Shown piece by piece: positions 7,402 through 37,341 of a DNA stretch of 64,000 nt. Made by a program: the position numbers and the translations under genes. How positions within the stretch are numbered: the first letter of the stretch is position 1; each line of letters opens with the position of its first letter. Source of the stretch: Promethearchaeota archaeon (GTDB lineage: Archaea > Asgardarchaeota > Lokiarchaeia > Sigyniarchaeales > SOKP01). A model generated the notes under the pieces. It saw nothing but the letters and a program-made list of their open reading frames with translations. It was not told the DNA's origin and made no database searches. The stretch is from assembly GCA_019058365.1 (NCBI GenBank), contig JAHPZE010000004.1, positions 192,001 to 256,000 on the forward strand. The letters are read 5' to 3'.

Positions 7402-8541
7402 TCAAATTACTTTTCTTACTTCAAAATTTTCAGCTCTTTTTATTTTTTTTTTACTAAAACTAATAACCTGCGCTAAAATTTTTGATTTTTCTACTGAAGT
7501 ATTTAATTCATTTGGTTCAAAAATATATCCTTTATTTTGAGCGAGATTATAGATTTTTTCTCCTGTTTTTGTTCTAATCATAACTGTTGTATAACCAGTT
7601 TGAGAACCCAAACCTCCAAAAGAAATATCAGCAAAATAATTCGAAAAATTTTCACAAACTCTGCACGCGTGTCTCATAATGTCTCTAAGGTCAGAAAATT
7701 CGATTCTTAAAGGATTTTCTTTATTTCTTAGATTAATTATCAAATTGTTTTTAATATTTATCTTCTCAATGTCCTTAAAAGAAAAGTTGAACCTCTCTTC
7801 AATTCTCGCTCTAGCAACATCATCAAATTTAAAATTCTCGTAACAAAATAAACCTAAAGTATACTTAACAATATGAGCAGGAATAATATTTAGTTCTTGC
7901 ATTTTTCTTATGGAGTGAATCTGACAGGGAACTCCAACCACAGCAATTTTCATATAATCTGAATCAGTAACTTTTTTTAATTCAGAAATAGTTGAAACAA
8001 AGGTATTATAATTGCCTAATTCTGGAATAGGACCTTTTAAATCGTAATTTGTACCTGCAGCTTCAAGAATTTCTTCCTTGGTTTTAGCAAAAAAAGGTAT
8101 CCTCTGAAAAGAACTAATTCTTTTTGATATAAGTGCGCCATTTATTAAATTATTATCTAAAAGAGCAATTAAAATAGCTGTCACAATACCTCCATCAGTA
8201 GCTACTTCCCGAATTTTTGGATCTTTTGCTTGAGCTGTTACAATTTTAACCCAATTTCCAATTGGGGGTTTAAAATCGAATCTCTTGTTTAATTCGTTTC
8301 TCAATTCAAAAGTTTCAGGACAAATTAAATAGCATATTCCACAATGTAAACAATTTTCTTTATTAAAATAATGAGGTGGTCCAACTTCTGTCATTTCAAT
8401 TGCTCCAATATCTGCTGCGGTACAAAAACTTACACAACCCCCGCATTCTCCACATATATCTTTTTCATGAATATCTTTAATGAGATCTTCAAAAGATTTA
8501 GGCATGATATCACTCATTTTTAATGTAGGATCTTCAGACAT
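7402..8541 (-). CDS. FrhB/FdhB/FpoF-family (F420-binding) subunit with N-terminal 2x[4Fe-4S]
   Basis: CGECGGCVSFC, CLHCGICYLICP, DGGIVT, AAGTNY, VVGVPCQI, GLFCYENF, CRVC..ADISFGGLGS. Confidence 0.88.
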   Translation of the reverse strand: MSEDPTLKMSDIMPKSFEDLIKDIHEKDICGECGGCVSFCTAADIGAIEMTEVGPPHYFNKENCLHCGICYLICPETFELRNELNKRFDFKPPIGNWVKIVTAQAKDPKIREVATDGGIVTAILIALLDNNLINGALISKRISSFQRIPFFAKTKEEILEAAGTNYDLKGPIPELGNYNTFVSTISELKKVTDSDYMKIAVVGVPCQIHSIRKMQELNIIPAHIVKYTLGLFCYENFKFDDVARARIEERFNFSFKDIEKINIKNNLIINLRNKENPLRIEFSDLRDIMRHACRVCENFSNYFADISFGGLGSQTGYTTVMIRTKTGEKIYNLAQNKGYIFEPNELNTSVEKSKILAQVISFSKKKIKRAENFEVRKVI

Positions 8542-9049
8542 ACAAATTTACCTTTTCTTTTCTTTCAAAAGTTAATTAATAATTCTATAATATTTTCCAA
8601 CATTATAATTTTTGTTAATAAAAATATATCAAAATGACTTAAATCGTATATTTTTTACTATATAAATATAGGAATTTGAACTATATTTCCCGATTCAATA
8701 ATTTTATATCAAAAATTATTTTTGTAAAAAATAACAAGTTTTTACAATATTTTGAATTAATATTCAAAATTGATAATTTTAAAAGTTAAAAAATTTATAA
8801 ATTAATACTTTTTTCTTACTAATTTTTCAAAAAGATAAATGAAAATGTCGGAAATTTTAAAAAATGTTATATATTTCCGAAACCGTATAAAATCTTTAAA
8901 TACGAAGATCGATCTTAATTATAATATTGGAAAAAATTATTGTAATCCTTAAAAATATAATAAATATATTATTAAAAATATCAATATTAATAAAATAGAT
9001 AATTAGTTTCTAAAACATAATATATTAATTAGCTTATGGGGTATAAATT

Positions 9050-9556
9050 ATGCAAATGGTTGATTTTGAATTTCGAAATGAGTTGATAAAGGAAGATTTC
9101 TCATTAAATTATTGTTATCAATGTGGAACTTGTTCCAGCTCATGTCCAGTAGCTTTTGTTACTCAAGGTGAATATAATCCTCGAAAAATTATCGAACAAT
9201 CACTTTTAGGGCTTAAAGATATGCTATTAAAAGACCAAAAACCTAATGTATGGTTATGTTGTACGTGTCAGATGTGCGTAGAAGAATGCCCCCAAAAGGT
9301 TTTTTTAACGGAAATTTTTGAGAGGATTAAAAATAAGATTGTATTATTAGGAGAACCTTACCCTGAGAATTTTAAAATACAAGCAAAAAGCGTAATACAA
9401 AATGGATTAGCAATTCCTCTAACACAACCAATTATTCGTAGAAGAGAACAATTGGGACTTCCGAATATAGAATCTGCTAATATTAAAGAATTAAAAAAAT
9501 TGTTAGATGCTACTGATTTTGAAAAAAAAATAAAAGTGTTTGAGGTAAGTAAATAA
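9050..9556 (+). CDS. hdrC: Heterodisulfide reductase subunit C
   Basis: CYQCGTCSSSCP and WLCCTCQMCVEECPQ; first gene of the operon. Confidence 0.9.
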   Translation: MQMVDFEFRNELIKEDFSLNYCYQCGTCSSSCPVAFVTQGEYNPRKIIEQSLLGLKDMLLKDQKPNVWLCCTCQMCVEECPQKVFLTEIFERIKNKIVLLGEPYPENFKIQAKSVIQNGLAIPLTQPIIRRREQLGLPNIESANIKELKKLLDATDFEKKIKVFEVSK

Positions 9557-9557
9557 A

Positions 9558-10427
9558 ATGTCTTATAGTTACTTTTTAGGTTGTGTAATTCCTGGAAGAC
9601 TACCATTTTTAGAAGCATCAGCGCGAAACACATTTGAAAAAATTGGTTTGAAAGTTGGAGATCAAGCCAAATGTTCATGTTGTCCAGATCCTACTGGGGC
9701 AGCTCAATTGGATCATGAAACATTCTTAGCTTTAGGAGCAAGAAATTTATGTCTTTTTGAAGAAAGTAATAAAAGTATATTAAGTCTCTGTTCTGGATGT
9801 ACAGAATCTCTCAAAACAGTTAAACATATATTAGATAATGATGATGAGAAGAAAAAAGAAATTAATTTGAAATTAAAGGTAATAGGAAAAGCCTATAAAG
9901 GAAGTATTGATATTAAACATTTTGCTGAAGTATTATATGAAAATATTGAAAAAATTAAACAAAAGGTTAAAAAACCATTAAAAGATCTAAAAGTTGCGGG
10001 TCACCCTGGATGTCATTATTTACGTCCATCTGAAATAATAAATTGGGATGATCCATTGAATCCTAAAACCTTAGATGAATTAATTGAAGCAACTGGAGCA
10101 GATCCTGTTGAATATAGTTTGAAAAATGATTGTTGTGGAAACCCAGTAGAAAAATCTGATAAGGACATTTCTCTAAGGATGTTAGAGAACAAACTTAAAA
10201 GCATGAAAGAAGCAGGAACAGATTGTATTGCGTGTGTTTGCCCTGCTTGTTATCAGCAATTTGATTTCAATCAGAGAGAAGTAAATAAAATTTACAATAC
10301 AGATTATAATTTTCCAGTTTTTTATATAACAGAACTCATTGCTTTAGCTATAGGAATGGATACAGAAAAGCTTGGCTTAAATTTCCACAGAATTAAAGTT
10401 AATGATATTTTAAAAAAAATTGCTTAA
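9558..10427 (+). CDS. hdrB: Heterodisulfide reductase subunit B
   Basis: YFLGC, CCPDP, HPGCHYLRP, CCG, CPACYQQFD (CCG domains). Confidence 0.92.
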   Translation: MSYSYFLGCVIPGRLPFLEASARNTFEKIGLKVGDQAKCSCCPDPTGAAQLDHETFLALGARNLCLFEESNKSILSLCSGCTESLKTVKHILDNDDEKKKEINLKLKVIGKAYKGSIDIKHFAEVLYENIEKIKQKVKKPLKDLKVAGHPGCHYLRPSEIINWDDPLNPKTLDELIEATGADPVEYSLKNDCCGNPVEKSDKDISLRMLENKLKSMKEAGTDCIACVCPACYQQFDFNQREVNKIYNTDYNFPVFYITELIALAIGMDTEKLGLNFHRIKVNDILKKIA

Positions 10428-10447
10428 TATAAAGAAGATGATTTAAG

Positions 10448-11743
10448 TTGGATGAAAATTTAAAAAGAGTTATGGTTATTGGAGGGGGAATCGCAGGAAT
10501 TCAAGCATCTTTAGATTTAGCTGAAAGAGGTATAAAAGTCGAATTGATTGAGAAAAATGCCTGTATCGGAGGACGAATGGCACAACTTGATAAAACATTT
10601 CCTACTAATGACTGTTCTATTTGTATTTTAGCTCCAAAACTCGCAGAATGTTTTCGACATCCAAATATTACTTTGCATACACTTTCAGAAGTAAAAAATC
10701 TATCAGGTCGACCAGGGAATTTCAATGTGAAAATATTCAAGAAAGCAAGATATGTAAAAGCAGAAGAATGTATAAATTGTGGACGATGTATAGAAAAATG
10801 TCCAATGAGGGTAGACGATGAATTTGATATGAAATTAAGAAAACGTAGAGCAATTTATATTGATTATGTTCAAGGTGTTCCCTCAATAATGACTATAGAT
10901 AAAGAAAACTGTTTATTTTTCACAAAGAACGCTTGCAGGATTTGTGAAAAAGTGTGTGAAAGAGAAGCAATCGATTTCGATCAAAAGGATGAAGAAATGG
11001 AATTAAATGTGGGATCTATCATTGTAGCGACAGGTTATGATATATTTGATCCAAAAACTCTCGAATCTTTAGGATATGGTCGATATCCCAATGTTGTTAC
11101 TGCTCTAGAATTTGAAAGATTAATTAGTGCTTCTGGACCGTTGGGAGGACATTTGACGAGGCCATCGGATAAAAATGAGCCTAAAAAACTGGCTTTCATT
11201 AATTGTGTAGGTTCAAGAGATATAAAAAACAATCCATATTGTTCATCTTGTTGTTGTATGTATACCACTAAAGAAGCAATGATAGCTTATGAGCATGATA
11301 ATGAGATAGATACTTCAATATTCTATATTGATCTTAGAGCTGCTGGTAAAGGTTTCCGAGAATATATTCAAAGAGGAGGAGATGAATATGCTATTAAATA
11401 CATTAAAGGAAAGGTAGCGAAGATATTGGAAGATGATCAAAGAAATCCTTTAATTATATTTGAAGATATTAATACTTCGCAAGTGAAACAACTTAAATTT
11501 GACTTAGTAATTTTAGCTACTACTATGATACCTAAAAAAGATGCTGCAGGATTAGCTAAAATCCTTGGAATTAAAATAAATGATTATAACTTTTTCAAAG
11601 CAGAGAATTACCAACCACAAAAATCCTCTAAGGAAGGAATTTTTCTCTGCGGTGCTTGTAGGGAACCAATGGATATTCCAAATTCTGTAATTGATGCAAG
11701 TGGAGCAGCCGCTAAAGCTGCTGAAATTGTAATGAGGGGGTAA
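10448..11743 (+). CDS. hdrA: HdrA-like flavoprotein, N-half type (FAD domain plus inserted ferredoxin)
   Basis: TTG start; VIGGGIAG, LDKTFPTNDCSICI, CINCGRCIEKCP, EFERL, CVGSRD..YCSSCCCMY. Confidence 0.88.
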   Translation: MDENLKRVMVIGGGIAGIQASLDLAERGIKVELIEKNACIGGRMAQLDKTFPTNDCSICILAPKLAECFRHPNITLHTLSEVKNLSGRPGNFNVKIFKKARYVKAEECINCGRCIEKCPMRVDDEFDMKLRKRRAIYIDYVQGVPSIMTIDKENCLFFTKNACRICEKVCEREAIDFDQKDEEMELNVGSIIVATGYDIFDPKTLESLGYGRYPNVVTALEFERLISASGPLGGHLTRPSDKNEPKKLAFINCVGSRDIKNNPYCSSCCCMYTTKEAMIAYEHDNEIDTSIFYIDLRAAGKGFREYIQRGGDEYAIKYIKGKVAKILEDDQRNPLIIFEDINTSQVKQLKFDLVILATTMIPKKDAAGLAKILGIKINDYNFFKAENYQPQKSSKEGIFLCGACREPMDIPNSVIDASGAAAKAAEIVMRG

Positions 11744-11747
11744 AAAA

Positions 11748-13415
11748 ATGACGGACGACGATATTAGAATTGGCGTTTTTATTTGTCATTGTGGTACTAA
11801 TATAGGTGGTGTTTTAGATATCTCTGAGTTAACAGAATATACCAAGACTTTACCTAATGTAGTATATAGTGCTGCAAACCTTTATACATGTTCAGAAGTT
11901 GGATTAAGTGAGATCAGAGAAAATATAAAGGAACATAATTTAAATCGTGTTATTGTAGCATCATGTTCTCCTCGAACTCATGAACCATTATTTAGATCAA
12001 CTTGTCAAGAAGCAGGTTTGAATCCTTATTTATTCGAAATGGTAAACATTCGAGATCAAGATTCTTGGGTTCATATGAAAGAGCCAGAAAAAGGTACCGA
12101 AAAGGCTAAAGATCTCATTAGAATGGGTGTTTTTAAGGCTGCTCTATTAGAATCATTAGAAAAAATGCAAGTTAGCGTAATACCTTCTGCTATAGTAATA
12201 GGTGGCGGGATCGCAGGAATGAATGCTGCATTAAATTTAGCAAACCAAAGTTTTAAAGTAAGTGTAATCGAAAAGGATTCTGAATTAGGAGGATTAATTA
12301 GACATTTAAATAAAGTATATCCTACTAATGAAGATGCTTCAAATATATTAGAAACAAGAAATTTGGTAGAGAATCATAAAAAAATTGAGGTATATAAGTC
12401 TGCTGTAATAGAAAAAATAGAAGGATATGTAGGGAACTTTAAAGTAATTATTCTTCAAAATAAAAAAACCATAGAAATTGAAGCAGGAGCTATTATTGTT
12501 GCTACAGGCGCAAAAGCTTTATCACCAGAAGGATACTATAATTATAATGGAAAAACCATAATAAGTCAATTAGAACTTGAAGGTTTATTAAAAGAGAATA
12601 AAATTAACAATTCTAACATTACTATGATTCAATGTGTTGGTTGTAGAAATGAAGAACGAAAATATTGTTCAAATATATGCTGTATGACTGCGCTTAAAAA
12701 TGCAATCTTAATCAAGGAACACAATCCAAATGCTAATATTAATATAATTTTTAGAGATATCCAAACTCAAGGTGTTGCCTATGAGGAATACTATAGAAGA
12801 GCAAGAGAAATGGGAATTTTGTTTATAAAATATTTACCAGAGAAACCTCCAACAATTAAGAAAGACCGTATTGAGGTTTATAATGAATTTATGAATCAAA
12901 TCATTGGATTTCCTTATGATCTTGTTGTATTATCAATGCCTCTTGTTGCTAATGAAGATTCAGAACAGCTAGCTAAAATGTTAAAAGTGCCATTAGAAGA
13001 GAATCATTTCTTTTTAGAAGCTCATGTGAAATTAAGACCTGTTGATTTTGCTACAGACGGTATTTTTGTATGTGGCTCTGCTCATTGGCCAGCGGATATT
13101 TCAGAATCAATATCACAATCAAATGCTGCAGCTTCTAGAGCAAGTACAATAATCTCGAAAGAAATGCTAGAAGTAGAAGGTTCTACAGCCGAAGTTAATA
13201 CAGATTTATGTGTGGGATGTGAAGCGTGTATTAAGATTTGTTCCTATAGTGCAATATCTAAAGATGAGGAAACTGATACTGTCGTAGTTAATAAAGTTGT
13301 TTGTAAAGGGTGTGGAGTATGTGGTGCTAGTTGTCCGCAAAATGCAATAACGATACACCACTTTACTAGCGATCAAATTATTGCTGAAATTGTAACTTAT
13401 GGAGGTGGAGAATAA
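11748..13415 (+). CDS. hdrA: HdrA-like flavoprotein, C-half type (N-terminal Fe-S domain, FAD domain, C-terminal 2x[4Fe-4S])
   Basis: RIGVFICHCG, ASCSPRTHEPLF, VIGGGIAG, FLEAHVKLRP, CVGCEAC, CKGCGVC. Confidence 0.88.
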   Translation: MTDDDIRIGVFICHCGTNIGGVLDISELTEYTKTLPNVVYSAANLYTCSEVGLSEIRENIKEHNLNRVIVASCSPRTHEPLFRSTCQEAGLNPYLFEMVNIRDQDSWVHMKEPEKGTEKAKDLIRMGVFKAALLESLEKMQVSVIPSAIVIGGGIAGMNAALNLANQSFKVSVIEKDSELGGLIRHLNKVYPTNEDASNILETRNLVENHKKIEVYKSAVIEKIEGYVGNFKVIILQNKKTIEIEAGAIIVATGAKALSPEGYYNYNGKTIISQLELEGLLKENKINNSNITMIQCVGCRNEERKYCSNICCMTALKNAILIKEHNPNANINIIFRDIQTQGVAYEEYYRRAREMGILFIKYLPEKPPTIKKDRIEVYNEFMNQIIGFPYDLVVLSMPLVANEDSEQLAKMLKVPLEENHFFLEAHVKLRPVDFATDGIFVCGSAHWPADISESISQSNAAASRASTIISKEMLEVEGSTAEVNTDLCVGCEACIKICSYSAISKDEETDTVVVNKVVCKGCGVCGASCPQNAITIHHFTSDQIIAEIVTYGGGE

Positions 13416-14186
13416 ATGGTCTTTGAACCTAAAATTTTAGGTTTTTTATGTAATTGGTGCTCTTATGCTGGAGCAGACTTAGCAGGTGTTAGTCGAATCC
13501 AATACCCAACAAATGTCAGAGTTATTCGCGTTATGTGTTCTGGAAGAGTTGATCCAGTATTTATTGTTGAAGCATTTATGAATGGTATTGATGGAGTACT
13601 TGTTTTAGGATGTCATTTAGGAGATTGCCATTATATAAGTGGTAATTATGAAACAGAATTAAAAATGAAAATGTTAAGTAAAACATTATCAATGATAAAT
13701 TTCTCTGATCGAGTTCGACTTGATTGGGTTTCTGCATCAGAAGGAAATAGATTCGCTCAAATAATTGGTGATTTTACTGAACATATCCGTAAATTGGGAC
13801 CATCTCCAATTAAAAATGAGAAAGTAAAGAAAGAAATAATTGATAATCTAAATGCTGTTAAATTTGCCCTATGTGATTCAAGGTTAAGAGCTTTAGTTGC
13901 TAGGCAACGAGAATTAACCACAGATGGAAATGTATATGGGGAAATAATACCGACAGAAGAATTTGAGGAAATACTTGATAATGCTATTGAAAATGAAATT
14001 ATTCGTCATAAAATTTTAGAAAAAATTAAGAACGAAGGTAAGTCTGTCCCTGATATTGCAAAAGAAATTGACGTTGAACCTTATAAAGTATTACAACATA
14101 TTGTAACTCTTCGAGCTCGAGGTTTAGTTGATGTTGATCAAATAAATGAAGAAATTCCCACTTTCATATCGATTAAAGAGGTTTAA
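13416..14186 (+). CDS. mvhD: MvhD [2Fe-2S] subunit with C-terminal helical plus winged-helix-like extension
   Basis: FLCNWCSYAGAD, RVMCSGRVD, GCHLGDCHY, WVSASEG; ~125-aa extension ending KSVPDIAKEIDVEPYKVLQHIVTLRARGLV. Confidence 0.88.
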   Translation: MVFEPKILGFLCNWCSYAGADLAGVSRIQYPTNVRVIRVMCSGRVDPVFIVEAFMNGIDGVLVLGCHLGDCHYISGNYETELKMKMLSKTLSMINFSDRVRLDWVSASEGNRFAQIIGDFTEHIRKLGPSPIKNEKVKKEIIDNLNAVKFALCDSRLRALVARQRELTTDGNVYGEIIPTEEFEEILDNAIENEIIRHKILEKIKNEGKSVPDIAKEIDVEPYKVLQHIVTLRARGLVDVDQINEEIPTFISIKEV

Positions 14187-14188
14187 AG

Positions 14189-17100
14189 ATGGAAAAAATT
14201 GGGTCAGTTTTAGTAATAGGAGGTGGAATAGCAGGCATCCAAGCTTCAATGGATTTAGCAGATTCAGGCTTTAAAGTTTATTTAATTGAATCATCAATGA
14301 GTATAGGAGGAGTTATGTCTCAATTAGATAAAACTTTTCCTACGAATGACTGTTCTATATGTATTCTCGCTCCTAAATTGGTTGCTGCAGGGCGTCATGA
14401 AAATATTACACTTTTAATAAATACAAATTTGGAAAAAATTGCGGGAAATCCTGGTAATTTTACTGTTGGGTTGAAACAAAACTCTTTATTATTGGATCAA
14501 GAAAAATGTACTGGTTGTGGGGTATGTGCTCAAGAATGTCCTGTAGAAGCTATTGATTTTTTTAATGAGGGGCTCTCAAATAGAGCTGCTATATCTGTTA
14601 AATTTCCACAAGCAGTTCCTTTAGTATTTTCAATTGATCAGGATCTGTGTATCGGATGTGGTTTTTGTAAGGGCGTATGTAAAGCTAAGGCAATTGATTA
14701 TACTCTCGAGGACAAATTTACTACTTTGAATGTTGGAGCTATTATTTTAGCAGTTGGTTTTGATGAATATGACCCTAGTCTTACACAACAATATGGTTAC
14801 AGTAAATATTTGAATGTTGTCACTAGTATTGAATTTGAGCGAATATTAAGTGCAAGTGGTCCCCATTCGGGGCTCATCCTTAGGCCATCTGATGGAATTA
14901 TTCCAAAAAAAATAGCATTTTTGCAGTGTGTTGGTTCAAGAGATAAAAAACATGGTGCAGAATATTGTTCTTCAATCTGTTGTATGTATACCGCTAAAGA
15001 AGCTGTAATTGCGAAAGAACATATGGCAATTATTGAACCTACGATTTTCTCAATGGATGTGAGAGCTGTTGGAAAAGATTTTGATAAATATATTGAACGT
15101 GCTCAAGATGAATATGGCATTAGATATATTAGAAGTAGAATTTCGGATATTAAGGAAATAGTAGAGACAAAAGATCTGATTCTTCATTTTGAGAATGAAG
15201 AGGGAAAAGTAGTTAGTGAGGTTTTTAACTTAGTTGTTTTGGCCGTAGGTGCTTTACCAAATCGGAGTACAAAAGAGTTAGTAAAAAAGCTAAATATTGA
15301 ATTGAATAGTTATGATTTCTGTAAGACAAAGCCATTTTCCCCAGTAGAAACATCCAGAAAAGGAATTTATGTATGTGGTATGATTTCAGAACCTAAAGAT
15401 ATTCCAGAAACAGTTGTAGAGGCAAGTGCGGCAGCAGGTGCTGTAAATATTCTTTTATCTGATGTCAGAAATACTTTAATAACTGAAAAAGAATTACCAA
15501 AAGAAATTGATACAAGTGGAGAACCCCCTCGCATCGGTGTTTTTATATGTCATTGTGGGATTAACATTGGAGGTGTTGTAGATGTTCCTGAAGTTGTTGA
15601 ATATGCAAGTCAATTACCTGATGTAATTTATGCTGAAAGGAATTTATATACATGCTCAGCAGATACTCAAACTAAGATTAAAGAAAAAATTAAAGAACAT
15701 AATCTAAATAGAGTAATTGTTGCTTCATGTACCCCAAGAACTCATGAACCCTTATTTCAAGCAACAATTAGGGAAGCAGGTTTGAATAAATATCTTTTTG
15801 ATTTAGCAAATATCCGGGATCAATGCTCATGGGTACATATGCATGAACCAGAGGAAGCAACAGAGAAAGCAAAGGATCTAGTGAGAATGGCTATTGCTAG
15901 AGCTCGAAAATTAGTCCCTCTCCAAGAACAACAAGTAGAAGTAATACATAAGGGAATGGTAATTGGAGGAGGCGTTGCAGGAATGACAGCAGCTTTAAAC
16001 CTTGCAAATCAAGGATTTGAAGTATTTCTTATAGAAAAAGCTGAAAAATTAGGAGGATTTTCTAATAATATTTATCAAACTATAGAAAATTATGATGTTC
16101 AAGAATTTCTTGAAGATTTAATTAATAAAGTTAATAATCATAAGCTCATTAACGTATTTCTTAATGCTAGAATTAACTCAATAGGTGGTTACGTCTGTAA
16201 CTTTACAACCAAAATTACATGTGGTGAAGATAAACAAAAGAAAGAATTTCAGCACGGTATTATTATTGTAGCTACTGGAGCTCATGAATACCAACCAAAA
16301 AATGGTGAATTTCTTTTTGATAAAGATAATAGAGTTATATTACAATCAGAACTCGAAAAAATTCTTTTCACTGAGGAAGAGAAAATTAATAATTTAAATT
16401 CAATAGTAATGATACAGTGTGTAGGCTCTAGAAATGAAGAGCATCCATATTGTAGTAGGATGTGCTGTAGTGAAGCAATTAAAAATGCTTTAAAGGCAAA
16501 AGAGATTAATCCAAATCTTAATATCACTATTTTATATAGAGATATTCGAACCTATGGCTTTAAAGAAAAATATTACAATTTGGCAAGAGAAAAGGGAATA
16601 CTTTTTCTCAGGTTCAAAGATGATGCACCCCCTGAAATTAAGTTAGAAAATGGTAAATTAGATGTTTATATAGATAAATCAGATATTGGAACTATTAAAA
16701 TAGGAGCAGATTTAATTGCTCTAAGTGCAGGTATTGTCGCTGATGGTGAAGCTAACGAAATTTTAGCAAAAATGTTAAAAGTCCCAACGAATGATGATAA
16801 TTTTTTCTTAGAAGCTCATGTAAAACTTCGACCATCAGATTTCGCAACTGACGGTATCTTTTTATGCGGAACTGCTCGCGGAACTGCAACAATTAGCGAA
16901 AGCATAGGACAGGCAATGTCAGCTGCCTCTAGAGCTACTACAATTTTATCTAAAGATATTTTAATTACTCAAGGTGTCATATCTAAGGTTGATCCCGCTT
17001 TATGCATTGGATGCAATAGATGTGCTGAAGTGTGTAATTATGGTGCAGTTGGTGTAAAATATGAAGAAGGTTTAATGGTTTCTGAAGTTAATCCTCTACT

Positions 17101-17650
17101 TTGTAAAGGTTGTGGAGATTGTGCTGCTGAATGTCCTGCAGAAGCTATTACTATGAGTCATTTTGGACGTATTCAAATTGAACCAATGATAACTGAAGCT
17201 GCAAAAACTTCACTTTCAGATGGACCGCCTAGAATAGTTGCATTTCTCTGCAACTGGTGTAGTTATGCCGGTGCAGATCTAGCTGGAGTAAGTCGATATC
17301 AATATCCTCCAAATATAAGAACTATAAGAGTAATGTGTTCTGGGGGCATCCCTAAGAGTTTTATACTCCAAGCATTTTTAGAAGGTGCTGATGGCGTTTT
17401 TGTAGGTGGATGCCATCTAGGAGATTGTCATTATATAGCCGGAAATCAAGATACTTTAAGAAGAACTAATGAAATTGAACAAATTATAGAATCTCTCGGA
17501 ATCAATCCCGGTAGATTCCTGCGAAGATGGGTTTCTGCTAGTGAAGGAAAGCTTTTTGCTGAAACCATTACAGAATTTACCGAAAAATTAAAAAAATTAG
17601 GTCCTATTGAAAATGACTATAAAAAAGAAGAAATTCTTATAACAAAATAA
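14189..17650 (+). CDS. hdrA: Large HdrA-HdrA-MvhD fusion protein (two FAD domains)
   Basis: Colinear with the three preceding genes: two GGGxAG FAD motifs, LDKTFPTNDC, RIGVFICHCG, C-terminal FLCNWCSYAGAD/GCHLGDCHY. Confidence 0.9.
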   Translation: MEKIGSVLVIGGGIAGIQASMDLADSGFKVYLIESSMSIGGVMSQLDKTFPTNDCSICILAPKLVAAGRHENITLLINTNLEKIAGNPGNFTVGLKQNSLLLDQEKCTGCGVCAQECPVEAIDFFNEGLSNRAAISVKFPQAVPLVFSIDQDLCIGCGFCKGVCKAKAIDYTLEDKFTTLNVGAIILAVGFDEYDPSLTQQYGYSKYLNVVTSIEFERILSASGPHSGLILRPSDGIIPKKIAFLQCVGSRDKKHGAEYCSSICCMYTAKEAVIAKEHMAIIEPTIFSMDVRAVGKDFDKYIERAQDEYGIRYIRSRISDIKEIVETKDLILHFENEEGKVVSEVFNLVVLAVGALPNRSTKELVKKLNIELNSYDFCKTKPFSPVETSRKGIYVCGMISEPKDIPETVVEASAAAGAVNILLSDVRNTLITEKELPKEIDTSGEPPRIGVFICHCGINIGGVVDVPEVVEYASQLPDVIYAERNLYTCSADTQTKIKEKIKEHNLNRVIVASCTPRTHEPLFQATIREAGLNKYLFDLANIRDQCSWVHMHEPEEATEKAKDLVRMAIARARKLVPLQEQQVEVIHKGMVIGGGVAGMTAALNLANQGFEVFLIEKAEKLGGFSNNIYQTIENYDVQEFLEDLINKVNNHKLINVFLNARINSIGGYVCNFTTKITCGEDKQKKEFQHGIIIVATGAHEYQPKNGEFLFDKDNRVILQSELEKILFTEEEKINNLNSIVMIQCVGSRNEEHPYCSRMCCSEAIKNALKAKEINPNLNITILYRDIRTYGFKEKYYNLAREKGILFLRFKDDAPPEIKLENGKLDVYIDKSDIGTIKIGADLIALSAGIVADGEANEILAKMLKVPTNDDNFFLEAHVKLRPSDFATDGIFLCGTARGTATISESIGQAMSAASRATTILSKDILITQGVISKVDPALCIGCNRCAEVCNYGAVGVKYEEGLMVSEVNPLLCKGCGDCAAECPAEAITMSHFGRIQIEPMITEAAKTSLSDGPPRIVAFLCNWCSYAGADLAGVSRYQYPPNIRTIRVMCSGGIPKSFILQAFLEGADGVFVGGCHLGDCHYIAGNQDTLRRTNEIEQIIESLGINPGRFLRRWVSASEGKLFAETITEFTEKLKKLGPIENDYKKEEILITK

Positions 17651-17688
17651 TATAATTATCAAATTAATAAAATTAAGAGTTTTTTAAA

Positions 17689-18387
17689 ATGATTATAACT
17701 AAACAAAAAGGTATTGAAGAAATATATGAAATGATAAAACCATACTCAAAAATCCTAGTCGCTGGGTGTGATGGATGTTGTCAACCTCCACGCTCAATTA
17801 ATGAAGCAAAATTATTGGCACAAATGTTAGAATTGAAAGCAAGGAGTAATGGAAAAGAATTAAAATGGAAAGCTATCACTGTCCTAAGACAGTGTGATGA
17901 TAGAATTGCAGCAACGACAATAAGACCATTTATTGAAGAATTTGATGCAATTGTATCTTTAGCATGTGGTTTAGGTGTCGGAATGTTAAATAGAATCTTT
18001 CCTACAATTCTCACTTTTCCAGCACAAAACAGTATGTTTGGTGGAGCAGAAAATAATGGAGAAAATTATTTTGTTGAGTATTGTGAAACTTGTGGAGAAT
18101 GTCTCCTGGGAGTTACAGGTGGTATTTGTCCGATGGCAGGATGTGCAAAAAACCTGAGTAACGGTCCTTGTGGAGGACAAGTTGAAGGTAAATGTGAAGT
18201 AGGAGGATATACACACGATTGTGCATGGGTCAAAATCTGGGAACGATTGAAGAAATTCAATAGACTTGATTTATTCACAGTTTATAGACCACCACGAAAT
18301 TACCGTATATGGTCGAGTCCAAGATTTTTACATATTTATGAACCAAGTTCAAATGTGGAAGAACCGAAAAAGGAGGAGAAAGTATAA
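17689..18387 (+). CDS. metV: MetV, methylenetetrahydrofolate reductase Fe-S subunit (MTHFR C-terminal domain family)
   Basis: GCDGC, SLACGLG, CETCGECLLGVTGGICP..CAKNLSNGPCGG..CEV..CAW. Confidence 0.87.
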   Translation: MIITKQKGIEEIYEMIKPYSKILVAGCDGCCQPPRSINEAKLLAQMLELKARSNGKELKWKAITVLRQCDDRIAATTIRPFIEEFDAIVSLACGLGVGMLNRIFPTILTFPAQNSMFGGAENNGENYFVEYCETCGECLLGVTGGICPMAGCAKNLSNGPCGGQVEGKCEVGGYTHDCAWVKIWERLKKFNRLDLFTVYRPPRNYRIWSSPRFLHIYEPSSNVEEPKKEEKV

Positions 18388-18388
18388 A

Positions 18389-19327
18389 ATGCCAAAAAGA
18401 CCTGCTTACAGTAATCTAGTAAAGAATATCAAAGAAGGAAAATTCGTATTCACTGGTGAATTAGAACCTGAGAAAGATTTTGATTTAAAACATGTTCTGA
18501 AGTCTGCAGAAGCAATGAAAAAGACTAATAAAATCGTTGCCGCTAATGTTACAGACGGGCCTCAAGGAGATGCTTATACATGTTCCATGGTCCCTTGCTA
18601 TCTAGTTCAAGAAAAAGTTGGATTAGAAGCCATCTGGCAGATGACTGTTCGAGATAGAAATAGAATTGCTCTATTTGGTGATATTTTAGGTGGTGCAATT
18701 CTCGGTCTTAAAAATCTACTTGCATTAACAGGTGATCATTCTGCACTTGGAGATCACCAAAATGCTAGACCTGTTTATGATCTAGATTCTACTCAATTGA
18801 TAGAACTCGTTTCAAAAATGGTTGATGAAGGAACTGATTTAGAAGGAAATGAGATAGTAGGAGGAAAACCGCAAATAAATGTTGGTTGTGCTGCAAATCC
18901 AAATTCAAATCCAAGAGAGCCAGAAATTTTAAAAGTTGGGAGAAAGGTAGAGGTGGGAGCAGATTTCATTCAAACTCAAACTTCATTTGATATTGATGAT
19001 GCTAAGGAGTTTCTAAAGGAATTAGAAAAATATAATACTCCTGTCTTACTTGGGTTATTTCCAATAAAAAGTTATGGAATTGCTGCCTATTTTGATGCAA
19101 ATATTCCAGGTGTGTCAGTTCCTAAAGAATTTCTTGGAGCATTAAAGAAAGCAGAAAAAGATAATAAGGGGAATAAAAATGCTAAATATGCTGCGATAGA
19201 TAAGGTTAATCTGGAGTTCTACAGACCGTTTATTAATGAAATTAAGAAAACTACTAAAGCTGCAGGAATTCATTGTATGGCAGTACATTATGAAAGATTA
19301 TTTGATCCACTCCTTAAAGATTTCTGA
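18389..19327 (+). CDS. metF: MetF, methylenetetrahydrofolate reductase (FAD)
   Basis: ATG 1 nt after the metV stop; FTGELEP, NVTD, QMTVRDRNR, LALTGDH, PVYDLDS, GADFIQTQ, GIHCM. Confidence 0.9.
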   Translation: MPKRPAYSNLVKNIKEGKFVFTGELEPEKDFDLKHVLKSAEAMKKTNKIVAANVTDGPQGDAYTCSMVPCYLVQEKVGLEAIWQMTVRDRNRIALFGDILGGAILGLKNLLALTGDHSALGDHQNARPVYDLDSTQLIELVSKMVDEGTDLEGNEIVGGKPQINVGCAANPNSNPREPEILKVGRKVEVGADFIQTQTSFDIDDAKEFLKELEKYNTPVLLGLFPIKSYGIAAYFDANIPGVSVPKEFLGALKKAEKDNKGNKNAKYAAIDKVNLEFYRPFINEIKKTTKAAGIHCMAVHYERLFDPLLKDF

Positions 19328-19415
19328 AATAAGAACATAAATTTAAAGAATAATTTTTTCGAAATTTCAAATTAAGATTTTTTTAAATATTAAAAAAGAG
19401 AAGAGGGAATTAATA

Positions 19416-19886
19416 ATGAAAAATTTAGATGATAAGGATAAGAGAATCCTTGAAATGCTTCTTGCGGATTCTAGAAGACCATATCATGAAATAGCGGCAG
19501 ATCCAAAGGTAGAATTATCTGAATCGACTGTAAGAAAACGTGTTATCAAACTGCAAGAAGAAGGGGTAATTGAAAAGTTTACTATACAGATCTGCCGTGA
19601 AGATGAAAGATGCATTATTGCATTCATTACACTTATTCCAAAAAGTTTAGCTGAGACAAAAGAATTATTAAGAGAAGCCCAAATCCTACCTCAATGTGAG
19701 GAAGTTTATTTTCTTGCGGGAGAATGTGGTGTTTTGATAAAAGTCAATGTACCTGAAATAATTGAGCTAGATGCGTTAATAGAATCATTCCGTGCTCGTG
19801 CTGATGTAAAAAGTGTTGAGAGAGTATGTGTAGTTTTAAGACCAATAAAAACCCTTCAACAACAATCGGAAGTTCGAGTTTTATAA
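19416..19886 (+). CDS. Lrp/AsnC family regulator (5 Cys)
   Basis: LDDKDKRILEML..RRPYHEIA..LSESTVRKRVIKLQEEGVIEKF. Confidence 0.87.
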   Translation: MKNLDDKDKRILEMLLADSRRPYHEIAADPKVELSESTVRKRVIKLQEEGVIEKFTIQICREDERCIIAFITLIPKSLAETKELLREAQILPQCEEVYFLAGECGVLIKVNVPEIIELDALIESFRARADVKSVERVCVVLRPIKTLQQQSEVRVL

Positions 19887-20880: not shown

Positions 20881-21801
20881 GTGATAGAAATGAGAAATAT
20901 CGTAGATAATGTTTATATAGTTAATCCATATGATCCTAATGGTTCAGGGTGCTGTGTTTACATGGTCGACACCAAAAGTGATGAAGGTTTAGTCTTGATT
21001 GATGCAGGAATGGAAATTGAATTACTACGGGTTATAGAGGAAGATGGATTTGATCTAAAAGATATTAAACACTGTCTTATAACACACGGGCATATAGACC
21101 ATTACGGTGTCTGTAATAAACTTAAAGAATTTAACAAAGATATCAAATTTTACGCGCATGACCTAGATGCTGAAGATAATGAGTTAAAGATAAGAGATCC
21201 TAGTACTGCTCAAATGTATGCAGATTATAAATATGAACCTATTAAAATTAATAGAATTATAAAAAATGATAACGAGATTTTGAAATTTGGGAATTATGAG
21301 TTTAAATGTATTCACATTCCTGGACACACTCCCGGATCTGTAGCATATCTTTTAGAAACAAGTGGTAAAAAGATTCTCTTTGGTGGAGATCTGCTGGGAA
21401 TAGCTATTAATTTTCAAGGAGGGAATTTAGACGCTTATCTCAAATCAATGCAAAAATTAATTGAGTTAAAAATCGATATATCGTGTGAAGGGCATGAAGA
21501 TCTTATAGAACCGGCAGAAAAAGTGTTGAAATTTATTAAAGGGTATATGGAGCTTAATAAAAATCTTAATACTGTTGTATTAGAAAACCCATCCGATACT
21601 AAAGCTTTATTTGAGTTGGCATTTATATCTTATGAGCTTGAGTTTTATGAAATGACATTAGATTTTTGTAATTACTTGTTAGAAATTCAACCTGAAAATG
21701 AAAAAGCTCAAAAACTACTTAAAGAAACCAAGAAACATAATCCTACAAAATTTGAATGGATAAAAAACTTCATAAACCGAGCTTCTGGATCAGTAAATTA
21801 A
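20881..21801 (+). CDS. Metallo-beta-lactamase fold hydrolase with C-terminal TPR-like repeat
   Basis: THGHIDH, PGHTPGS, GGD, EGH; C-terminal NPSDTKALFELA..LLEIQPENEKA. Confidence 0.82.
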   Translation: MIEMRNIVDNVYIVNPYDPNGSGCCVYMVDTKSDEGLVLIDAGMEIELLRVIEEDGFDLKDIKHCLITHGHIDHYGVCNKLKEFNKDIKFYAHDLDAEDNELKIRDPSTAQMYADYKYEPIKINRIIKNDNEILKFGNYEFKCIHIPGHTPGSVAYLLETSGKKILFGGDLLGIAINFQGGNLDAYLKSMQKLIELKIDISCEGHEDLIEPAEKVLKFIKGYMELNKNLNTVVLENPSDTKALFELAFISYELEFYEMTLDFCNYLLEIQPENEKAQKLLKETKKHNPTKFEWIKNFINRASGSVN

Positions 21802-28195: not shown

Positions 28196-28392
28196 TAATG
28201 AATTCTGCACTAATTAGAGTTTGAGGAGAATAAGGTTAAGTTAGTCTTCCTCTCTAATTTTACTAATTTTTATTTTTAATATTTTTCTTTTCGAAATGTA
28301 ACATTTTATAACTCAAAATAATAAATATCTTGATTAATTTCAATACTTAAGATTAAAAAATACCTTTTAAAAAAAGAAAATTTGTGAAAAAA

Positions 28393-29064
28393 ATGGTTGT
28401 TATAACAACTAAAAAGCCTGTAGAGGAAGTTCTTAATGTCCTGAAAGATAATAATGCTAAAAAGTTGTTTATTGTAAGTTGTGGGGTTTGTTCAGCATTA
28501 TGTCAAACAGGTGGTGAACAAGGCTTAGAGGAATGGAAAGAAATCTTAGAGAAAGAAGGATATGAGATAGTTAATGGCATGGTTGTAGATGATGTCTGTG
28601 ATAATAGAGAAATGGCTAAAGTTGTACGCAAAAATGATGCGGATGTTCAAGAAGCTGATTCTATTGTCACCTTAAGTTGTGGACTTGGAGTTCAATCTAC
28701 AGTTCAGGTGCTTTCTAAGAAATATCCTGAAAAGCAAGTGTTTGTTACAAATAATACAGAATTTATGGGTATGACAGAGAGAATCGGCAGATTTTATATG
28801 CGATGTCGAGGATGTGGTGATTGTCTATTAAATGAAACAGGTGGTATTTGTCCCATTACCACATGTGCAAAATCGCTTATGAATGGACCATGTGGAGGAA
28901 TGGTTAAAGGCAAATGTGAGGTTGGTAATTACGAGAAAGATTGTGGCTGGGTATTAATTTATAATCGATTGAAAGAGATAGGGAGATTAGATTTATTTTC
29001 CAAATTGAGAGATCCCGTAGATTGGAGTGAATCTGGACACCAACGTGAAGTAGTATGGAGGTAG
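28393..29064 (+). CDS. metV: MetV paralog (second copy)
   Basis: SCGVCSALC, LSCGLGVQ, CRGCGDCLLNETGGICPITTCAKSLMNGPCGG; ATG 28393 preferred over GTG 28384. Confidence 0.87.
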   Translation: MVVITTKKPVEEVLNVLKDNNAKKLFIVSCGVCSALCQTGGEQGLEEWKEILEKEGYEIVNGMVVDDVCDNREMAKVVRKNDADVQEADSIVTLSCGLGVQSTVQVLSKKYPEKQVFVTNNTEFMGMTERIGRFYMRCRGCGDCLLNETGGICPITTCAKSLMNGPCGGMVKGKCEVGNYEKDCGWVLIYNRLKEIGRLDLFSKLRDPVDWSESGHQREVVWR

Positions 29065-29071
29065 AATCAAA

Positions 29072-30004
29072 ATGGCAGAAAAAAAAGTATTTTCTAAATT
29101 AGGTGAAAAGTTAGCAAATGGGGAATTTATACTAACAGGCGAGCTAGAGCCTGAAAAAACTTGTGATCTTTCACATACAATCCAAGAAGCTAAAGAAATG
29201 GCTCCATACGTTGTTGCTGCCAATGTTACTGATAGTCCACTTGGAATAGTAACAATTAATAGTATGGCTGCCTCTCATATTATTCAAAAAGAAGCTGAGT
29301 TGGAAGTGATTTGGCAACTTACAGTAAGAGACGTGAATAAATTAGGTATAGCTGGAATGATAATGGGGGGTCATGCATTAGGATTGAGAAATGTTTTATC
29401 TCTTACTGGGGATCATCCTGCCCTTGGAGATATGCCTGAATCTAAACCTGTATTTGATCTTGATTCAGCGACTCTAGTTAAATTAATACGAGAGATGGTT
29501 GATAAGGGAAAAATAAATGGTCATGAAATTGAACATCCTCCAACTCTTCATGTAGGAGCCGCTGCAAATCCAAACGCAGATCCTATGGGAGCTGAGATTT
29601 TAAAAATTGGAAGAAAAGCCGAAGCAGGCTGTGAATTTATACAAACTCAAGTTGTTTACGATTTGGACAGAACTATTGAATTTTTAAGTGAGATCAAAAA
29701 GTATAACGTTCCAGTTTTACTTGGAATTTTTCCAATGAAAAGCTATGGTATTGCCAAGGGTTTTGATACTTTTGTTCCTGGAGTTGATGTTCCAAAGGAC
29801 ATTTTAGCCAAATGGAAAAACATCAAAACAGAGTTTAAGGATGATAAAAAGGAACAGAATAGATTATATGATCAGGCTAATTATGAGTTTTTCAAGCCCT
29901 TTATTTCCGAACTAAAGAGAAAGGGTTTATTAGCGGGCGTACATTGCATGGCTGTTCATTATCCCCGAATCTTTCCTAAATTGATGGAAGTAATTCAAGC
30001 TTAA
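29072..30004 (+). CDS. metF: MetF paralog (second copy)
   Basis: LTGELEP, NVTD, LTVRD, LTGDH, PVFDLDS, FIQTQ, GVHCM. Confidence 0.9.
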   Translation: MAEKKVFSKLGEKLANGEFILTGELEPEKTCDLSHTIQEAKEMAPYVVAANVTDSPLGIVTINSMAASHIIQKEAELEVIWQLTVRDVNKLGIAGMIMGGHALGLRNVLSLTGDHPALGDMPESKPVFDLDSATLVKLIREMVDKGKINGHEIEHPPTLHVGAAANPNADPMGAEILKIGRKAEAGCEFIQTQVVYDLDRTIEFLSEIKKYNVPVLLGIFPMKSYGIAKGFDTFVPGVDVPKDILAKWKNIKTEFKDDKKEQNRLYDQANYEFFKPFISELKRKGLLAGVHCMAVHYPRIFPKLMEVIQA

Positions 30005-30029: not shown

Positions 30030-31121
30030 TTATGGTAATTTGATAACTTTACCAACTTTTAAATCAAAATAAGTCTCTTTAAACGTCTCCTTAAAAATAT
30101 TAATGCTCTCTATGCTGCTATCATGAGGTGAAAGCGCGATTAATTTAGGATTTCTAGCTTTTAGGTAATCTAAAGCGAAATCTCGATCATTTTTATCCCA
30201 TGGTTCCCATGGTGGTCTTTTTGTCATGATAAATTTATGAATTGGCAATCCTGACCAAATATCCTCATCACCTGGGAAATTTGGGATAGGCAAATGTAAT
30301 CCTCCTATAAAACCATAAATGGGTGTATTAAATAAAGCTTCTACACGATCTATTATCTTTTTAATTCCTTGATGTCCACAACCGACAATAATTACAATCC
30401 CTTTTCCTTCAACATTTATAGCCATAGCCTGTTCGTAAATATCTCTAAAAAAAAACAAAGGATTATGTATAGGACCGATGGAAGCTATACCCTCTGATAT
30501 GACCTCTGGACCTTTCACTTGGCTTATAATAGCAGTAGGATGAGTCATGGGAACAGGAGTAAATGCTTTTACATGGTTTAGGTTAAGTTGGGTTCCTGAA
30601 AGTGAAAATGTATTCTTCTGAGCCCATTGTAAACCTCCTACATGATCACCATGTAAGTGTGAAATAAAAATATACTTAAAGTCTTCTAAAGTGATACCTA
30701 AAGCCTCCATATTCTTTAGAAGGGGAGATGGATGCTTTCTATTAGGATTTAAACCTGTATCATATAGAATACCTACATCATCAGCTTTAATATAATAGGA
30801 AACTCCATTTTCAGTGAAGAGATTATTTTCAGCATGATAATCGATAAGAGGGACAATCTCCAAATCTTTAACTATGCCTATATCATCTAATTTGTTGAAC
30901 TTAGTACTCGACCACTCATTCTCAATAATTTGTTTATTCTTTTCAAATCTTTTGTTCAATACCATTAAAGTGAATAAAGGAAGTGACATTTGAAAAGCTC
31001 GCATCAATTCAAACTCAGAAAGTTTCTCTCCATTTACAATTTTGGATATAATCTCACGATCCTTTATTAGAGGATATTCTTTTAGCAATTTCTTGATTTC
31101 TTCTAAGCTTATACTACTCAA
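30030..31121 (-). CDS. MBL-fold hydrolase, MJ0301-like family
   Basis: ENGVSYYI, ILYDTG, SHLHGDHVGG, GCGHQG, GGLHL. Confidence 0.75.
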   Translation of the reverse strand: MSSISLEEIKKLLKEYPLIKDREIISKIVNGEKLSEFELMRAFQMSLPLFTLMVLNKRFEKNKQIIENEWSSTKFNKLDDIGIVKDLEIVPLIDYHAENNLFTENGVSYYIKADDVGILYDTGLNPNRKHPSPLLKNMEALGITLEDFKYIFISHLHGDHVGGLQWAQKNTFSLSGTQLNLNHVKAFTPVPMTHPTAIISQVKGPEVISEGIASIGPIHNPLFFFRDIYEQAMAINVEGKGIVIIVGCGHQGIKKIIDRVEALFNTPIYGFIGGLHLPIPNFPGDEDIWSGLPIHKFIMTKRPPWEPWDKNDRDFALDYLKARNPKLIALSPHDSSIESINIFKETFKETYFDLKVGKVIKLP

Positions 31122-36318: not shown

Positions 36319-37341
36319 TTAGCAATAATATAAAAGTTTTCCATTACTTTCAATTGCTTTTACTTTATCTTCCGCTTCAAGATAAAAGAGATGCCCTAAC
36401 ACTTCACTTAATGCCATATAAGAATTCATTTCGTCTAAATCTTCTCCAAAATGGATTTGAGATATTCTATAAGCAGTCATAGGATTATCTTTAATCAATC
36501 TTGAAATCTCTGTTAATCTATTTTGATGATGTTCTTTAATTTGTTGAATCCGTTCATGGGGGTTATAAATTATCTCTTGGTGAGCAGGGAAAATTATTTT
36601 TGGATTTAACTTGTCAATTTTATCTAAAGAGATTAAATAATGCTTTAAAATGTTCTTAAAATCGTGATTTTTGTATTTTTCTGCCATATCAGTAGGAATA
36701 ATGAAATTTCCTATGTGAGGTGTAATTCGACTCAAAATGTGGTCCCCAGAGAAAAGATACTTATTTTCCTTATCAAAAATACAAATATGGCCGAAACTGT
36801 GTCCTGGAGTCCAAATAATTTCTAATCTTTCAAATAATATATCTCCATCGTGTACTACAATATCAGGTTTTTGATATTCCAAAAATTTTGGCCAATATGT
36901 AAAAAACTGAACAATTCTATTTCCTTGTTCTTCACTGAGTCCATAATTTATCAATTGGTTTGCTGTCAGTCTGGCTTCTTGTTCTAATTCAGGTAACTGC
37001 TCATCATTAGTTTCCCATTTCAATAGATCATGAGTTATGTCATGCATTAAGATTTTAAGCTCAGGATTTTTCTGCTTGAGTACTTTAACTAAGCCTATAT
37101 GATCTGTATGAATGTGTGTAATGATGCAATAGTCAATATCTCGAATTGAAATGTTAATATCTTCAAAAGCAGAGAATAATTTTTTTTTCCAATTACCCAT
37201 ATTTAAACCAGCATCTATAAGGATATTCTTTCCCTGAAGTTTAAATAGATAAACACATATGTATTTGACGGGGAAAGGAACAGGTATTTTTATTCGATGT
37301 ACTCCATTAATTTCAGTTAATTCAAATTTAGAACTAGACAA
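36319..37341 (-). CDS. MBL-fold hydrolase with C-terminal winged helix
   Basis: THIHTDH, TPGHSFGH, SGDHIL, PAH. Confidence 0.85.
   Translation of the reverse strand: MSSSKFELTEINGVHRIKIPVPFPVKYICVYLFKLQGKNILIDAGLNMGNWKKKLFSAFEDINISIRDIDYCIITHIHTDHIGLVKVLKQKNPELKILMHDITHDLLKWETNDEQLPELEQEARLTANQLINYGLSEEQGNRIVQFFTYWPKFLEYQKPDIVVHDGDILFERLEIIWTPGHSFGHICIFDKENKYLFSGDHILSRITPHIGNFIIPTDMAEKYKNHDFKNILKHYLISLDKIDKLNPKIIFPAHQEIIYNPHERIQQIKEHHQNRLTEISRLIKDNPMTAYRISQIHFGEDLDEMNSYMALSEVLGHLFYLEAEDKVKAIESNGKLLYYC

Follow-up and report, generated by a model that had tools for sequence, protein, structure and literature searches.

In a 64,000-nt window of a Lokiarchaeia genome (contig JAHPZE010000004.1, positions 192,001-256,000, forward strand; all unprefixed coordinates are positions in this window), we analyzed an operon in which genes for heterodisulfide reductase (Hdr) subunits and MvhD run directly into metV and metF, encoding a methylene-pterin reductase, with an frhB-like gene transcribed divergently from it. 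Comparisons of sequences and gene content across related genomes indicate that the enzyme encoded by this operon quite probably replaces Mer in the interconversion of methylene- and methyl-tetrahydromethanopterin (H4MPT). The explanation that we narrowly favor for the system as a whole is a Mer-replacing MetVF wired into Hdr electron bifurcation through an MvhD arm.

A preliminary description of this locus had listed eight co-directional genes ending in metV-metF with gaps of 0-38 nt, a divergent FrhB/FpoF-family gene and no hydrogenase (mvhAG), Fdh or NAD-binding module, and both coordinates and domain searches agree with that layout. On the forward strand, the operon encodes HdrC (9050-9556; TIGR03290, E 3e-29), HdrB (9558-10427; two PF02754 matches, both CCG motif sets intact), HdrA' (10448-11743), HdrA'' (11748-13415), an MvhD with a C-terminal winged helix-turn-helix (HTH)-like domain (MvhD-HTH, 13416-14186; PF02662 at residues 7-128, weak HTH matches), a 1153-aa HdrA'A''-MvhD fusion (14189-17650), the Fe-S subunit MetV (17689-18387; PF12225) and the reductase subunit MetF (18389-19327; PF02219). 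The successive intergenic gaps are 1, 20, 4, 0, 2, 38 and 1 nt, and an Lrp/AsnC regulator gene (19416-19886, forward strand), kept behind metF in most loci of the family, follows 88 nt beyond. This gene order is not due to chance, as an HdrA-MvhD gene lies in the operon upstream of metV-metF at 23 of the 23 Asgard loci retrieved. HdrA' lacks the N-terminal domain and carries the Cys197 motif, an inserted ferredoxin and the E356/K409 equivalents (residue numbering taken from a 5ODC alignment), and HdrA'' is the complementary half, with the N-terminal domain, a C-terminal ferredoxin and no Cys197 motif. Since this complementary pattern recurs in the fusion, the same A'A''-MvhD unit is encoded twice, once split and once fused; complementary halves of this kind have been read as an asymmetric dimer (PMC9012536). 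All four flavin domains of the window HdrA proteins retain the E356/K409 equivalents and the cluster cysteines, and GltD and Fer4_20 domains are absent among their listed domain matches. Domain searches found no MvhAG, Fdh, Flx or GltD module in the cluster, and no fdhA or elpA. MetV alignments show invariant N-terminal cysteines (Cys27/30/69/93) and C-terminal cysteine cluster motifs; a PDB sequence search with MetV returned no significant match (best E 0.33), and MetF has distant PDB relatives only (best E 2e-8). A TTG codon at 18266 is probably not the metF start and was rejected, the ATG at 18389 giving the 310-312-aa form called in several relatives.

The case for Mer replacement starts from the gene content of the host, a genome rated 100% complete with 6.6% contamination. 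It encodes Mtd, Mch, Ftr, CofD, CofE, CofG and FolD, with CofD, CofE and CofG scoring over their cut-offs, and neither Fhs nor McrA was found in it. Canonical Mer (TIGR03555) is absent from the host, where the best candidates are two luciferase-like monooxygenase (LLM) genes with Mer-model scores of 163 and 135 bits, the cut-off being 349; these were rejected as Mer, being far under that cut-off and patchy, and one of them is found in only 57 of 117 family genomes and also in genomes with true Mer. The absence of Mer, combined with the presence of Mtd, Mch and Ftr, supports the earlier proposal that MetVF could replace Mer in the Wood-Ljungdahl pathway, and the survey of mer, cof, tetrahydrofolate (H4F) and H4MPT genes that had been called for also confirmed F420 synthesis (CofD, CofE, CofG) and use (Mtd) in this host. 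The cdhD gene noted at the window end is indeed located there (62993-64000); it lies 43 kb away and was not counted as contextual support.

The distribution of these genes in related genomes follows the same pattern. Among 138 genomes of the class, Mer is found in 0 of 131 from the host order and in 7 of 7 from other orders. Mtd is present in 109 of 117 genomes of the host family versus 0 of 11 in the sister family, and the metV ortholog (counted at 67% identity or more) in 98 of 118 family genomes, host included, versus 1 of 11, with three genomes of one genus lacking both; these counts were taken among kin and are not independent events. With Mer missing throughout the order and metV present in 98 family genomes, MetVF-Hdr is the best candidate to fill the Mer gap. 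Furthermore, a locus from another Asgard class (L119) presents the string metV-metF-hdrAA/mvhD-hdrC-hdrB-mer-mer, with two true mer genes, and this shared string ties the metVF-Hdr module to the same one-carbon step as Mer. Loki-3 archaea are recognized to lack a typical mer (PMC8027215), and the host pattern would correspond to theirs.

To place MetV within the Hdr assembly, we compared the loci of the family, which share a frame composed of a thermosome/PEPCK/GTPase block, a variable module and metV-metF-lrp. At nearly all loci examined, metVF stands in an operon with a protein that ends in a C-terminal ferredoxin plus MvhD, and the three types of module found at this one locus all carry this adapter. 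In the majority allele, type I, an hdrA'A''/mvhD gene (~1160 aa, 47-51% identical to that of the window) is followed by hdrC-hdrB, with no frhB of the window clade; in 52 of the 53 cases with both parts on one contig, adapter and metV are 1.5-1.6 kb apart, in keeping with this layout. Type II is the module of the window and occurs in 26 genomes, including a sub-group that has kept frhB and lacks hdrCB. Type III, in two genomes (L056:12244-14976 and L068), is a 910-aa fusion of an HdrA N-terminus, a GltD-like NAD(P)H-type flavoprotein, ferredoxin and MvhD directly before metVF.

The adapter of the window fusion (16973-17623, forward strand; port 2) is the predicted docking site of MetV. Over residues 1-920, the flavin body of the fusion is 59-74% identical to Flx/C16-type paralogs versus 38-58% to type I proteins, and past approximately residue 920 this order flips, with the ferredoxin segment at 34-44% to the paralogs versus 55-66% to type I and the MvhD core at 62-65% versus 79-83%. 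Quick trees, with Shimodaira-Hasegawa-like approximate likelihood ratio test (SH-aLRT) support only, group the body with the Hdr-Flx-type paralogs (99) and the adapter with types I and III (97), and place MvhD-HTH in a separate MvhD clade; an approximately unbiased (AU) test rejected joining the body with type I (p-AU 8e-103). The crossover could stem from recombination or from shared constraint, and both would point to a MetV-related role of the adapter. Complex prediction for the adapter with MetV yielded an interaction score (ipSAE) of 0.67, versus 0.01 for the best of three controls, with runs agreeing in at least 95% of contacts and a partner pLDDT (predicted local distance difference test) of 88; solved complexes reached the mark used in 58 of 80 cases and mismatched pairs in 2 of 110, figures that apply only roughly because own alignments were used. 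In the predicted complex, residues 12-16 and 54-57 of the adapter, next to its ferredoxin cluster cysteines, touch MetV residues 28-39, next to Cys27/Cys30, so that MetV is predicted to bind the adapter via its N-terminal cysteine domain. Within the FrhB-MvhD-HdrA-MetV assembly put forward for modelling, the adapter-MetV pair is thus predicted to bind. The earlier placement of MetVF downstream of the bifurcating flavin is weakened by this predicted complex, from which MetV rather likely sits on the MvhD donor arm.

With MetV in this position, MetVF would be a port for two electrons at mid potential, in the manner of MvhAG or FdhB. In Loki-type archaea without Mer, the operon enzyme would interconvert methylene- and methyl-H4MPT, with electrons passing between the MetF flavin, the MetV clusters, the HdrA C-terminal ferredoxin, the MvhD [2Fe-2S] cluster and the flavin of the HdrA' half, where they would split or merge between ferredoxin, through the inserted ferredoxin domain, and a disulfide at HdrBC. 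The overall reaction would be 2 CH3-H4MPT + Fd(ox) + RSSR <-> 2 CH2=H4MPT + Fd(red) + 2 RSH, near equilibrium, where Fd is ferredoxin. In Elp-Hdr and Fdh-Hdr, electrons from the donor likewise cross the clusters of one HdrA, then the MvhD homolog, and arrive at the flavin of the partner HdrA (PMC12350162), a route that fits the retention of E356/K409 in the HdrA' half of most type I proteins and their replacement by S and R in HdrA''. Among the candidates for the thiol partner of HdrB is a lipoylated protein; the genome has two GcvH-family genes, neither of them near the operon.

We then computed the energetics of this scheme. The redox potentials of H4MPT and F420 are -323 mV and -360 mV. Other values were taken from PMC9430772, PMC9012536 and PMC5244752, with ferredoxin at -420 mV and disulfides at -200 and -281 mV added as a range. 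When the disulfide is set between -143 and -200 mV, the favored reaction comes out at -16 to +10 kJ.

Several observations weigh against the favored explanation. Some ten Mtd-positive genomes of the family lack this metV, two of them 99-100% complete, so MetVF cannot be the sole solution to the Mer gap. The evidence on the carrier is mixed, with no Fhs, FolD present and H4MPT-branch genes present, and FolD and a second metVF in the host make H4F a possible carrier. The AU test on the 218-residue adapter rejected neither grouping (p 0.18 for both), so that recombination in the fusion is one possible reading. A group of proteins not associated with metV (L105-L113, L120) falls in the adapter clade with similar interface residues, and the complex prediction can also be passed by a near relative of the genuine partner. 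Oxidation of the methyl group becomes endergonic by 11-26 kJ if the disulfide is taken at -281 mV; the hdrCB-less sub-allele of type II would need HdrCB in trans; and the model for Sporomusa routes electrons from HdrA through HdrCB to MetVF (PMC9430772). An exclusive association of the adapter clade with metV neighbors was also considered and rejected, as the non-metV group lies within the clade on a long branch.

The frhB-like gene (7402-8541, reverse strand) bears on where F420 enters the system. Its 379-aa product, an FrhB/FpoF-like F420 oxidoreductase module, combines an N-terminal 2x[4Fe-4S] domain with FrhB_N/C (PF04422/PF04432) and scores under every equivalog cut-off; its best PDB matches are the F420-type beta subunits 8RJA_E (E 5e-47) and 8RIU_B (1e-40), with FdhB at E ~1e-11. 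It is separated from hdrC by an AT-rich divergent spacer of 508 bp (8542-9049), the half of which nearest hdrC is also retained in frhB-less relatives; a sigma-70 promoter and terminator scan of this spacer was uninformative (AT-rich noise, wrong promoter type). The frhB-hdr-metVF synteny, which the preliminary description had named as a point to check, holds within type II, where 18 of 26 genomes carry an frhB ortholog with at least 69% identity (on one contig in 15 and split by contig ends in three), and fails across all genomes with this metV, only 18 of 98 of which have it; the majority allele has no frhB of this clade. The orthologs stand beside the module in three genera, with 69-92% identity, including the sub-group that has lost hdrCB. 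In one type II locus (L071), the frhB frame is gone although all of the spacer, as far as the former start codon of frhB, is kept (81% identity over 566 nt); the persistence of this spacer marks the loss of frhB as secondary.

This frhB is related to those of a paralogous operon located ~70 kb upstream on the same contig (L001, G000 C39:114840-128740) and widespread in the family, which reads hdrC-hdrB-frhB-hdrA'-hdrA''-mvhD/HTH-hdrA'A''-mvhD-flxC-flxB-flxA-frhB and has two FrhB-like genes. The closest paralog of the window frhB comes from this Hdr-Flx operon (57% identity), the FrhB of which is sister to the window frhB clade (SH-aLRT 99), and in one genus the HdrC, HdrB, HdrA', HdrA'' and FrhB of the Hdr-Flx operon are 68-75% identical to those of the window. 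Because the type II backbone and frhB thus belong to the Hdr-Flx-FrhB operon family, FrhB travelled with the Hdr module and not with metVF, and we infer that frhB is an optional second electron port rather than a defining part of the system. The chance that this FrhB sits in the same complex appears slightly under even. As a tentative elaboration, which we hold to be possible though doubtful, the operon would encode a two-port Hdr supercomplex with MetVF on one MvhD arm, methyl/methylene-H4MPT being the mid-potential bifurcation substrate, and the FrhB-like protein on the other. The two HdrA'A'' pseudo-dimers would give the window allele two MvhD ports, and the one at MvhD-HTH would most likely take the divergently encoded FrhB-like protein, as FdhB and ElpB are taken in methanogens, tying the F420 pool to the same ferredoxin and thiol pools; FrhB would be dispensable or replaceable by paralogs in trans. 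Run together, both ports would amount to the Mer reaction with zero net ferredoxin gain; run separately, they would couple the one-carbon step to ferredoxin and thiol pools shared with the Mvh-Hdr-like and Hdr-Flx systems of the host.

The preliminary description had instead proposed that FrhB oxidizes F420H2 and feeds MvhD/HdrA, where the flavin would split electrons between ferredoxin and methylene-pterin, the latter branch passing by way of HdrCB or straight to MetVF, or run in reverse as confurcation to F420. This we regard as unlikely. The retention of frhB beside the module in three genera, even where hdrCB was lost, speaks for it, as does the F420H2-MvhD-HdrA input shown for Fdh-Hdr and Elp-Hdr (PMC12350162), and two flavin modules could permit routes unseen in solved structures. 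However, reduction of methylene-H4MPT and ferredoxin by 2 F420H2 is computed to be endergonic by +4 to +28 kJ; with H4F, the wiring is exergonic in five of six computed cases (-4 to -19 kJ), and this host has no detected Fhs. The coupling thus fails in the forward direction for H4MPT, and its reverse is feasible. Furthermore, the adjacent frhB ortholog is missing from 80 of the 98 metV genomes and 8 of the 26 genomes with the same module, its deletion in L071 is clean, and MetV is predicted on the MvhD arm itself.

It is quite unlikely that the operon encodes a folate enzyme, that is, a methylene-H4F reductase serving methionine or glycine/serine one-carbon units together with FolD, with the Mer step carried out by a distant F420-dependent LLM protein or the second MetVF. 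FolD is present, some Mtd-positive genomes lack this metV, a distant mer candidate has been proposed for Loki-3 (PMC8027215) and LLM homologs adjoin the second-type metVF pair in several relatives (L101-L103). Against this stand the lack of a detected Fhs in the host, the patchy distribution of the LLM candidate and its occurrence alongside true Mer, and the way this metV tracks Mtd across families; a 10-kb flavin/Fe-S operon would also seem excessive for an anabolic step. The second metV-metF pair of the window (28384-30004, forward strand) is 38% and 49% identical to the first and has no hdr genes; loci from other orders (L099, L100) have true mer genes close to a pair of this kind.

A third alternative, in which MetVF takes part in no bifurcation, the Hdr part only conducting electrons or acting as a scaffold and frhB having been carried along from the ancestral Hdr-Flx operon to serve other complexes, is very unlikely given the intact E356/K409 equivalents and cluster cysteines in all four flavin domains and the retention of frhB in 18 of 26 module-bearing genomes across genera, even though the input modules are interchangeable (GltD-like and hdrCB-less ones included), the genome holds approximately nine FrhB-like genes and many HdrA paralogs, and Sporomusa MetVF did not co-purify with Hdr, bifurcation not having been shown there (PMC9430772).

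The favored reading, with MetVF on an MvhD arm, can be set beside four known systems. As the preliminary description had recognized for Moorella, the operon resembles the Hdr-type (fourth type) methylenetetrahydrofolate reductase (MTHFR) MetFV-HdrCBA-MvhD of Moorella thermoacetica and Sporomusa ovata in both gene content and flavin features: hdrC, hdrB, a tandem two-flavin hdrA, mvhD and metV-metF share one operon (PMC9430772, PMC5861303), and HdrA has two flavin (TrxR-like) domains with the bifurcation signature. The mechanism and second partner of the acetogen enzyme are likewise open (PMC9430772, PMC5861303). Unlike that enzyme, the window HdrA proteins have no NAD(P)H-binding GltD insertion, which appears only in the rare type III allele; the host is an archaeon with an H4MPT branch and no detected Fhs, and the pterin is probably another; the HdrA'A''-MvhD unit is doubled and accompanied by a divergent FrhB-like gene; and MetV is predicted on the MvhD arm rather than reached through HdrCB as in the Sporomusa model.

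The MetFV-HdrA-MvhD clusters of Ca. Syntrophoarchaeum and the Mer/MetF switch of ANME-1 also involve an archaeal MetVF proposed to replace Mer on H4MPT, and these systems share the complementary Cys197/N-terminal-domain HdrA halves and include FdhB-only HdrA clusters (PMC9012536). Asgard MetF in general was reported to branch with ANME-1 MetF, although metF in ANME-1 is not clustered with hdr (PMC9012536), and in the window fusion, unlike in those systems, the Cys197 half comes first. That study has no account of this Lokiarchaeia operon, its allele swapping or the FrhB-Hdr-MetVF combination (PMC9012536).

In the F420H2-fed systems FdhAB-MvhD-HdrABC (7BKB), Elp-Hdr (PMC12350162) and Methanosarcina acetivorans HdrA2B2C2 (PMC5861303), an FrhB-family flavoprotein serves as the F420 port on MvhD and HdrA-MvhD fusions occur; the window likewise has an FrhB-family subunit, in a host with F420 synthesis genes. 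Those methanogen systems, however, reduce CoM-S-S-CoB and do not include MetVF, whereas no McrA was found in this host, and the window FrhB is FpoF-like, nearer to 8RJA_E and 8RIU_B than to FdhB. Finally, the backbone hdrC-hdrB-hdrA'-hdrA''-mvhD/HTH-hdrA'A''-mvhD is that of FlxABCD-HdrABC (cited in PMC9430772) and the host Hdr-Flx-FrhB operon, where flxCBA (NAD(P)H-type) follows the second MvhD in place of metVF.

MetFV-HdrA-MvhD clusters in Syntrophoarchaeum and F420H2 input via FdhB-family subunits are already known (PMC9012536, PMC12350162). The new element, as judged from sequence, would be a Hdr-wired MetVF of Lokiarchaeia as a variant of Hdr-type MTHFR with an optional F420 link; we found no description of this operon in the literature searched, the coverage of which was incomplete. 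With it, Loki-3 would have a concrete candidate for the step left without Mer in their H4MPT Wood-Ljungdahl pathway (PMC8027215), and it bears on the ANME-1 Mer/MetF puzzle (PMC9012536) and on the mechanism of Hdr-type MTHFR, an open question since 2014. The allele series (with and without FrhB, with and without HdrCB, and with GltD-type input) and a predicted MetV-adapter interface of ~450 residues bring the wiring within reach of tests on small constructs. For Asgard archaea in sediments, energy models would change, because the step would exchange electrons with ferredoxin and thiol and not only with F420. If the two-port arrangement is true, Lokiarchaeia would have exchanged the one-step F420 enzyme Mer for a ferredoxin-/thiol-coupled reaction in which F420 and NAD(P)H inputs are interchangeable, and the unsolved acetogen enzyme would dock in the same way.

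Further observations were made on Hdr-related genes. The winged-HTH-like domain of MvhD-HTH spans ~110 aa and is kept also in the Hdr-Flx operon. HdrA-MvhD fusions that carry interface residues of the MetV type and measure 1161-1186 aa, or 1648 aa where GltD is inserted, lie behind an HdrD-like gene and not beside metV (L105-L113, L120-L123); they could act in trans for the second MetVF, or for FrhB. Two loci show internal deletions between repeated hdrA units, one joining the HdrA'' start to the fusion tail (L022, 702 aa) and one leaving an hdrC fragment directly before the fusion (L016), either as real recombination or as assembly collapse. The best host match to most type I HdrC proteins (30-38%) is an orphan hdrC (G000 C35:281318-281830). 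In another order, an frhB gene diverges from hdrCB-A'A''-mvhD/HTH-hdrAA beside lrp (G007, L091). Loci of another Asgard family (L115-L118) have hdrAA/mvhD, then an overlapping frhB-like gene and a gene resembling that of the glutamate synthase large subunit, which may together encode a glutamate synthase linked to F420 and Hdr. G006 encodes, ~3 kb from hdrAA/mvhD-metVF, a Mer of 546 aa that is extended by 218 aa at its N-terminus (L098:6619-8259).

At another locus (L033:9096-14321), cofD and cofE-fbiB adjoin lipS1, an lplA-like gene and lipS2. Records titled Odinarchaeota and Thorarchaeota (L019, L021) carry the operon at 84-94% identity, and these titles look mislabelled, as their metV genes agree in coordinates or sequence with genomes assigned to the genus of the host. 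Elsewhere in the window, three genes (20881-21801, 30030-31121 and 36319-37341) encode metallo-beta-lactamase-fold proteins that score far under B3 beta-lactamase cut-offs where tested and are probably ordinary hydrolases.

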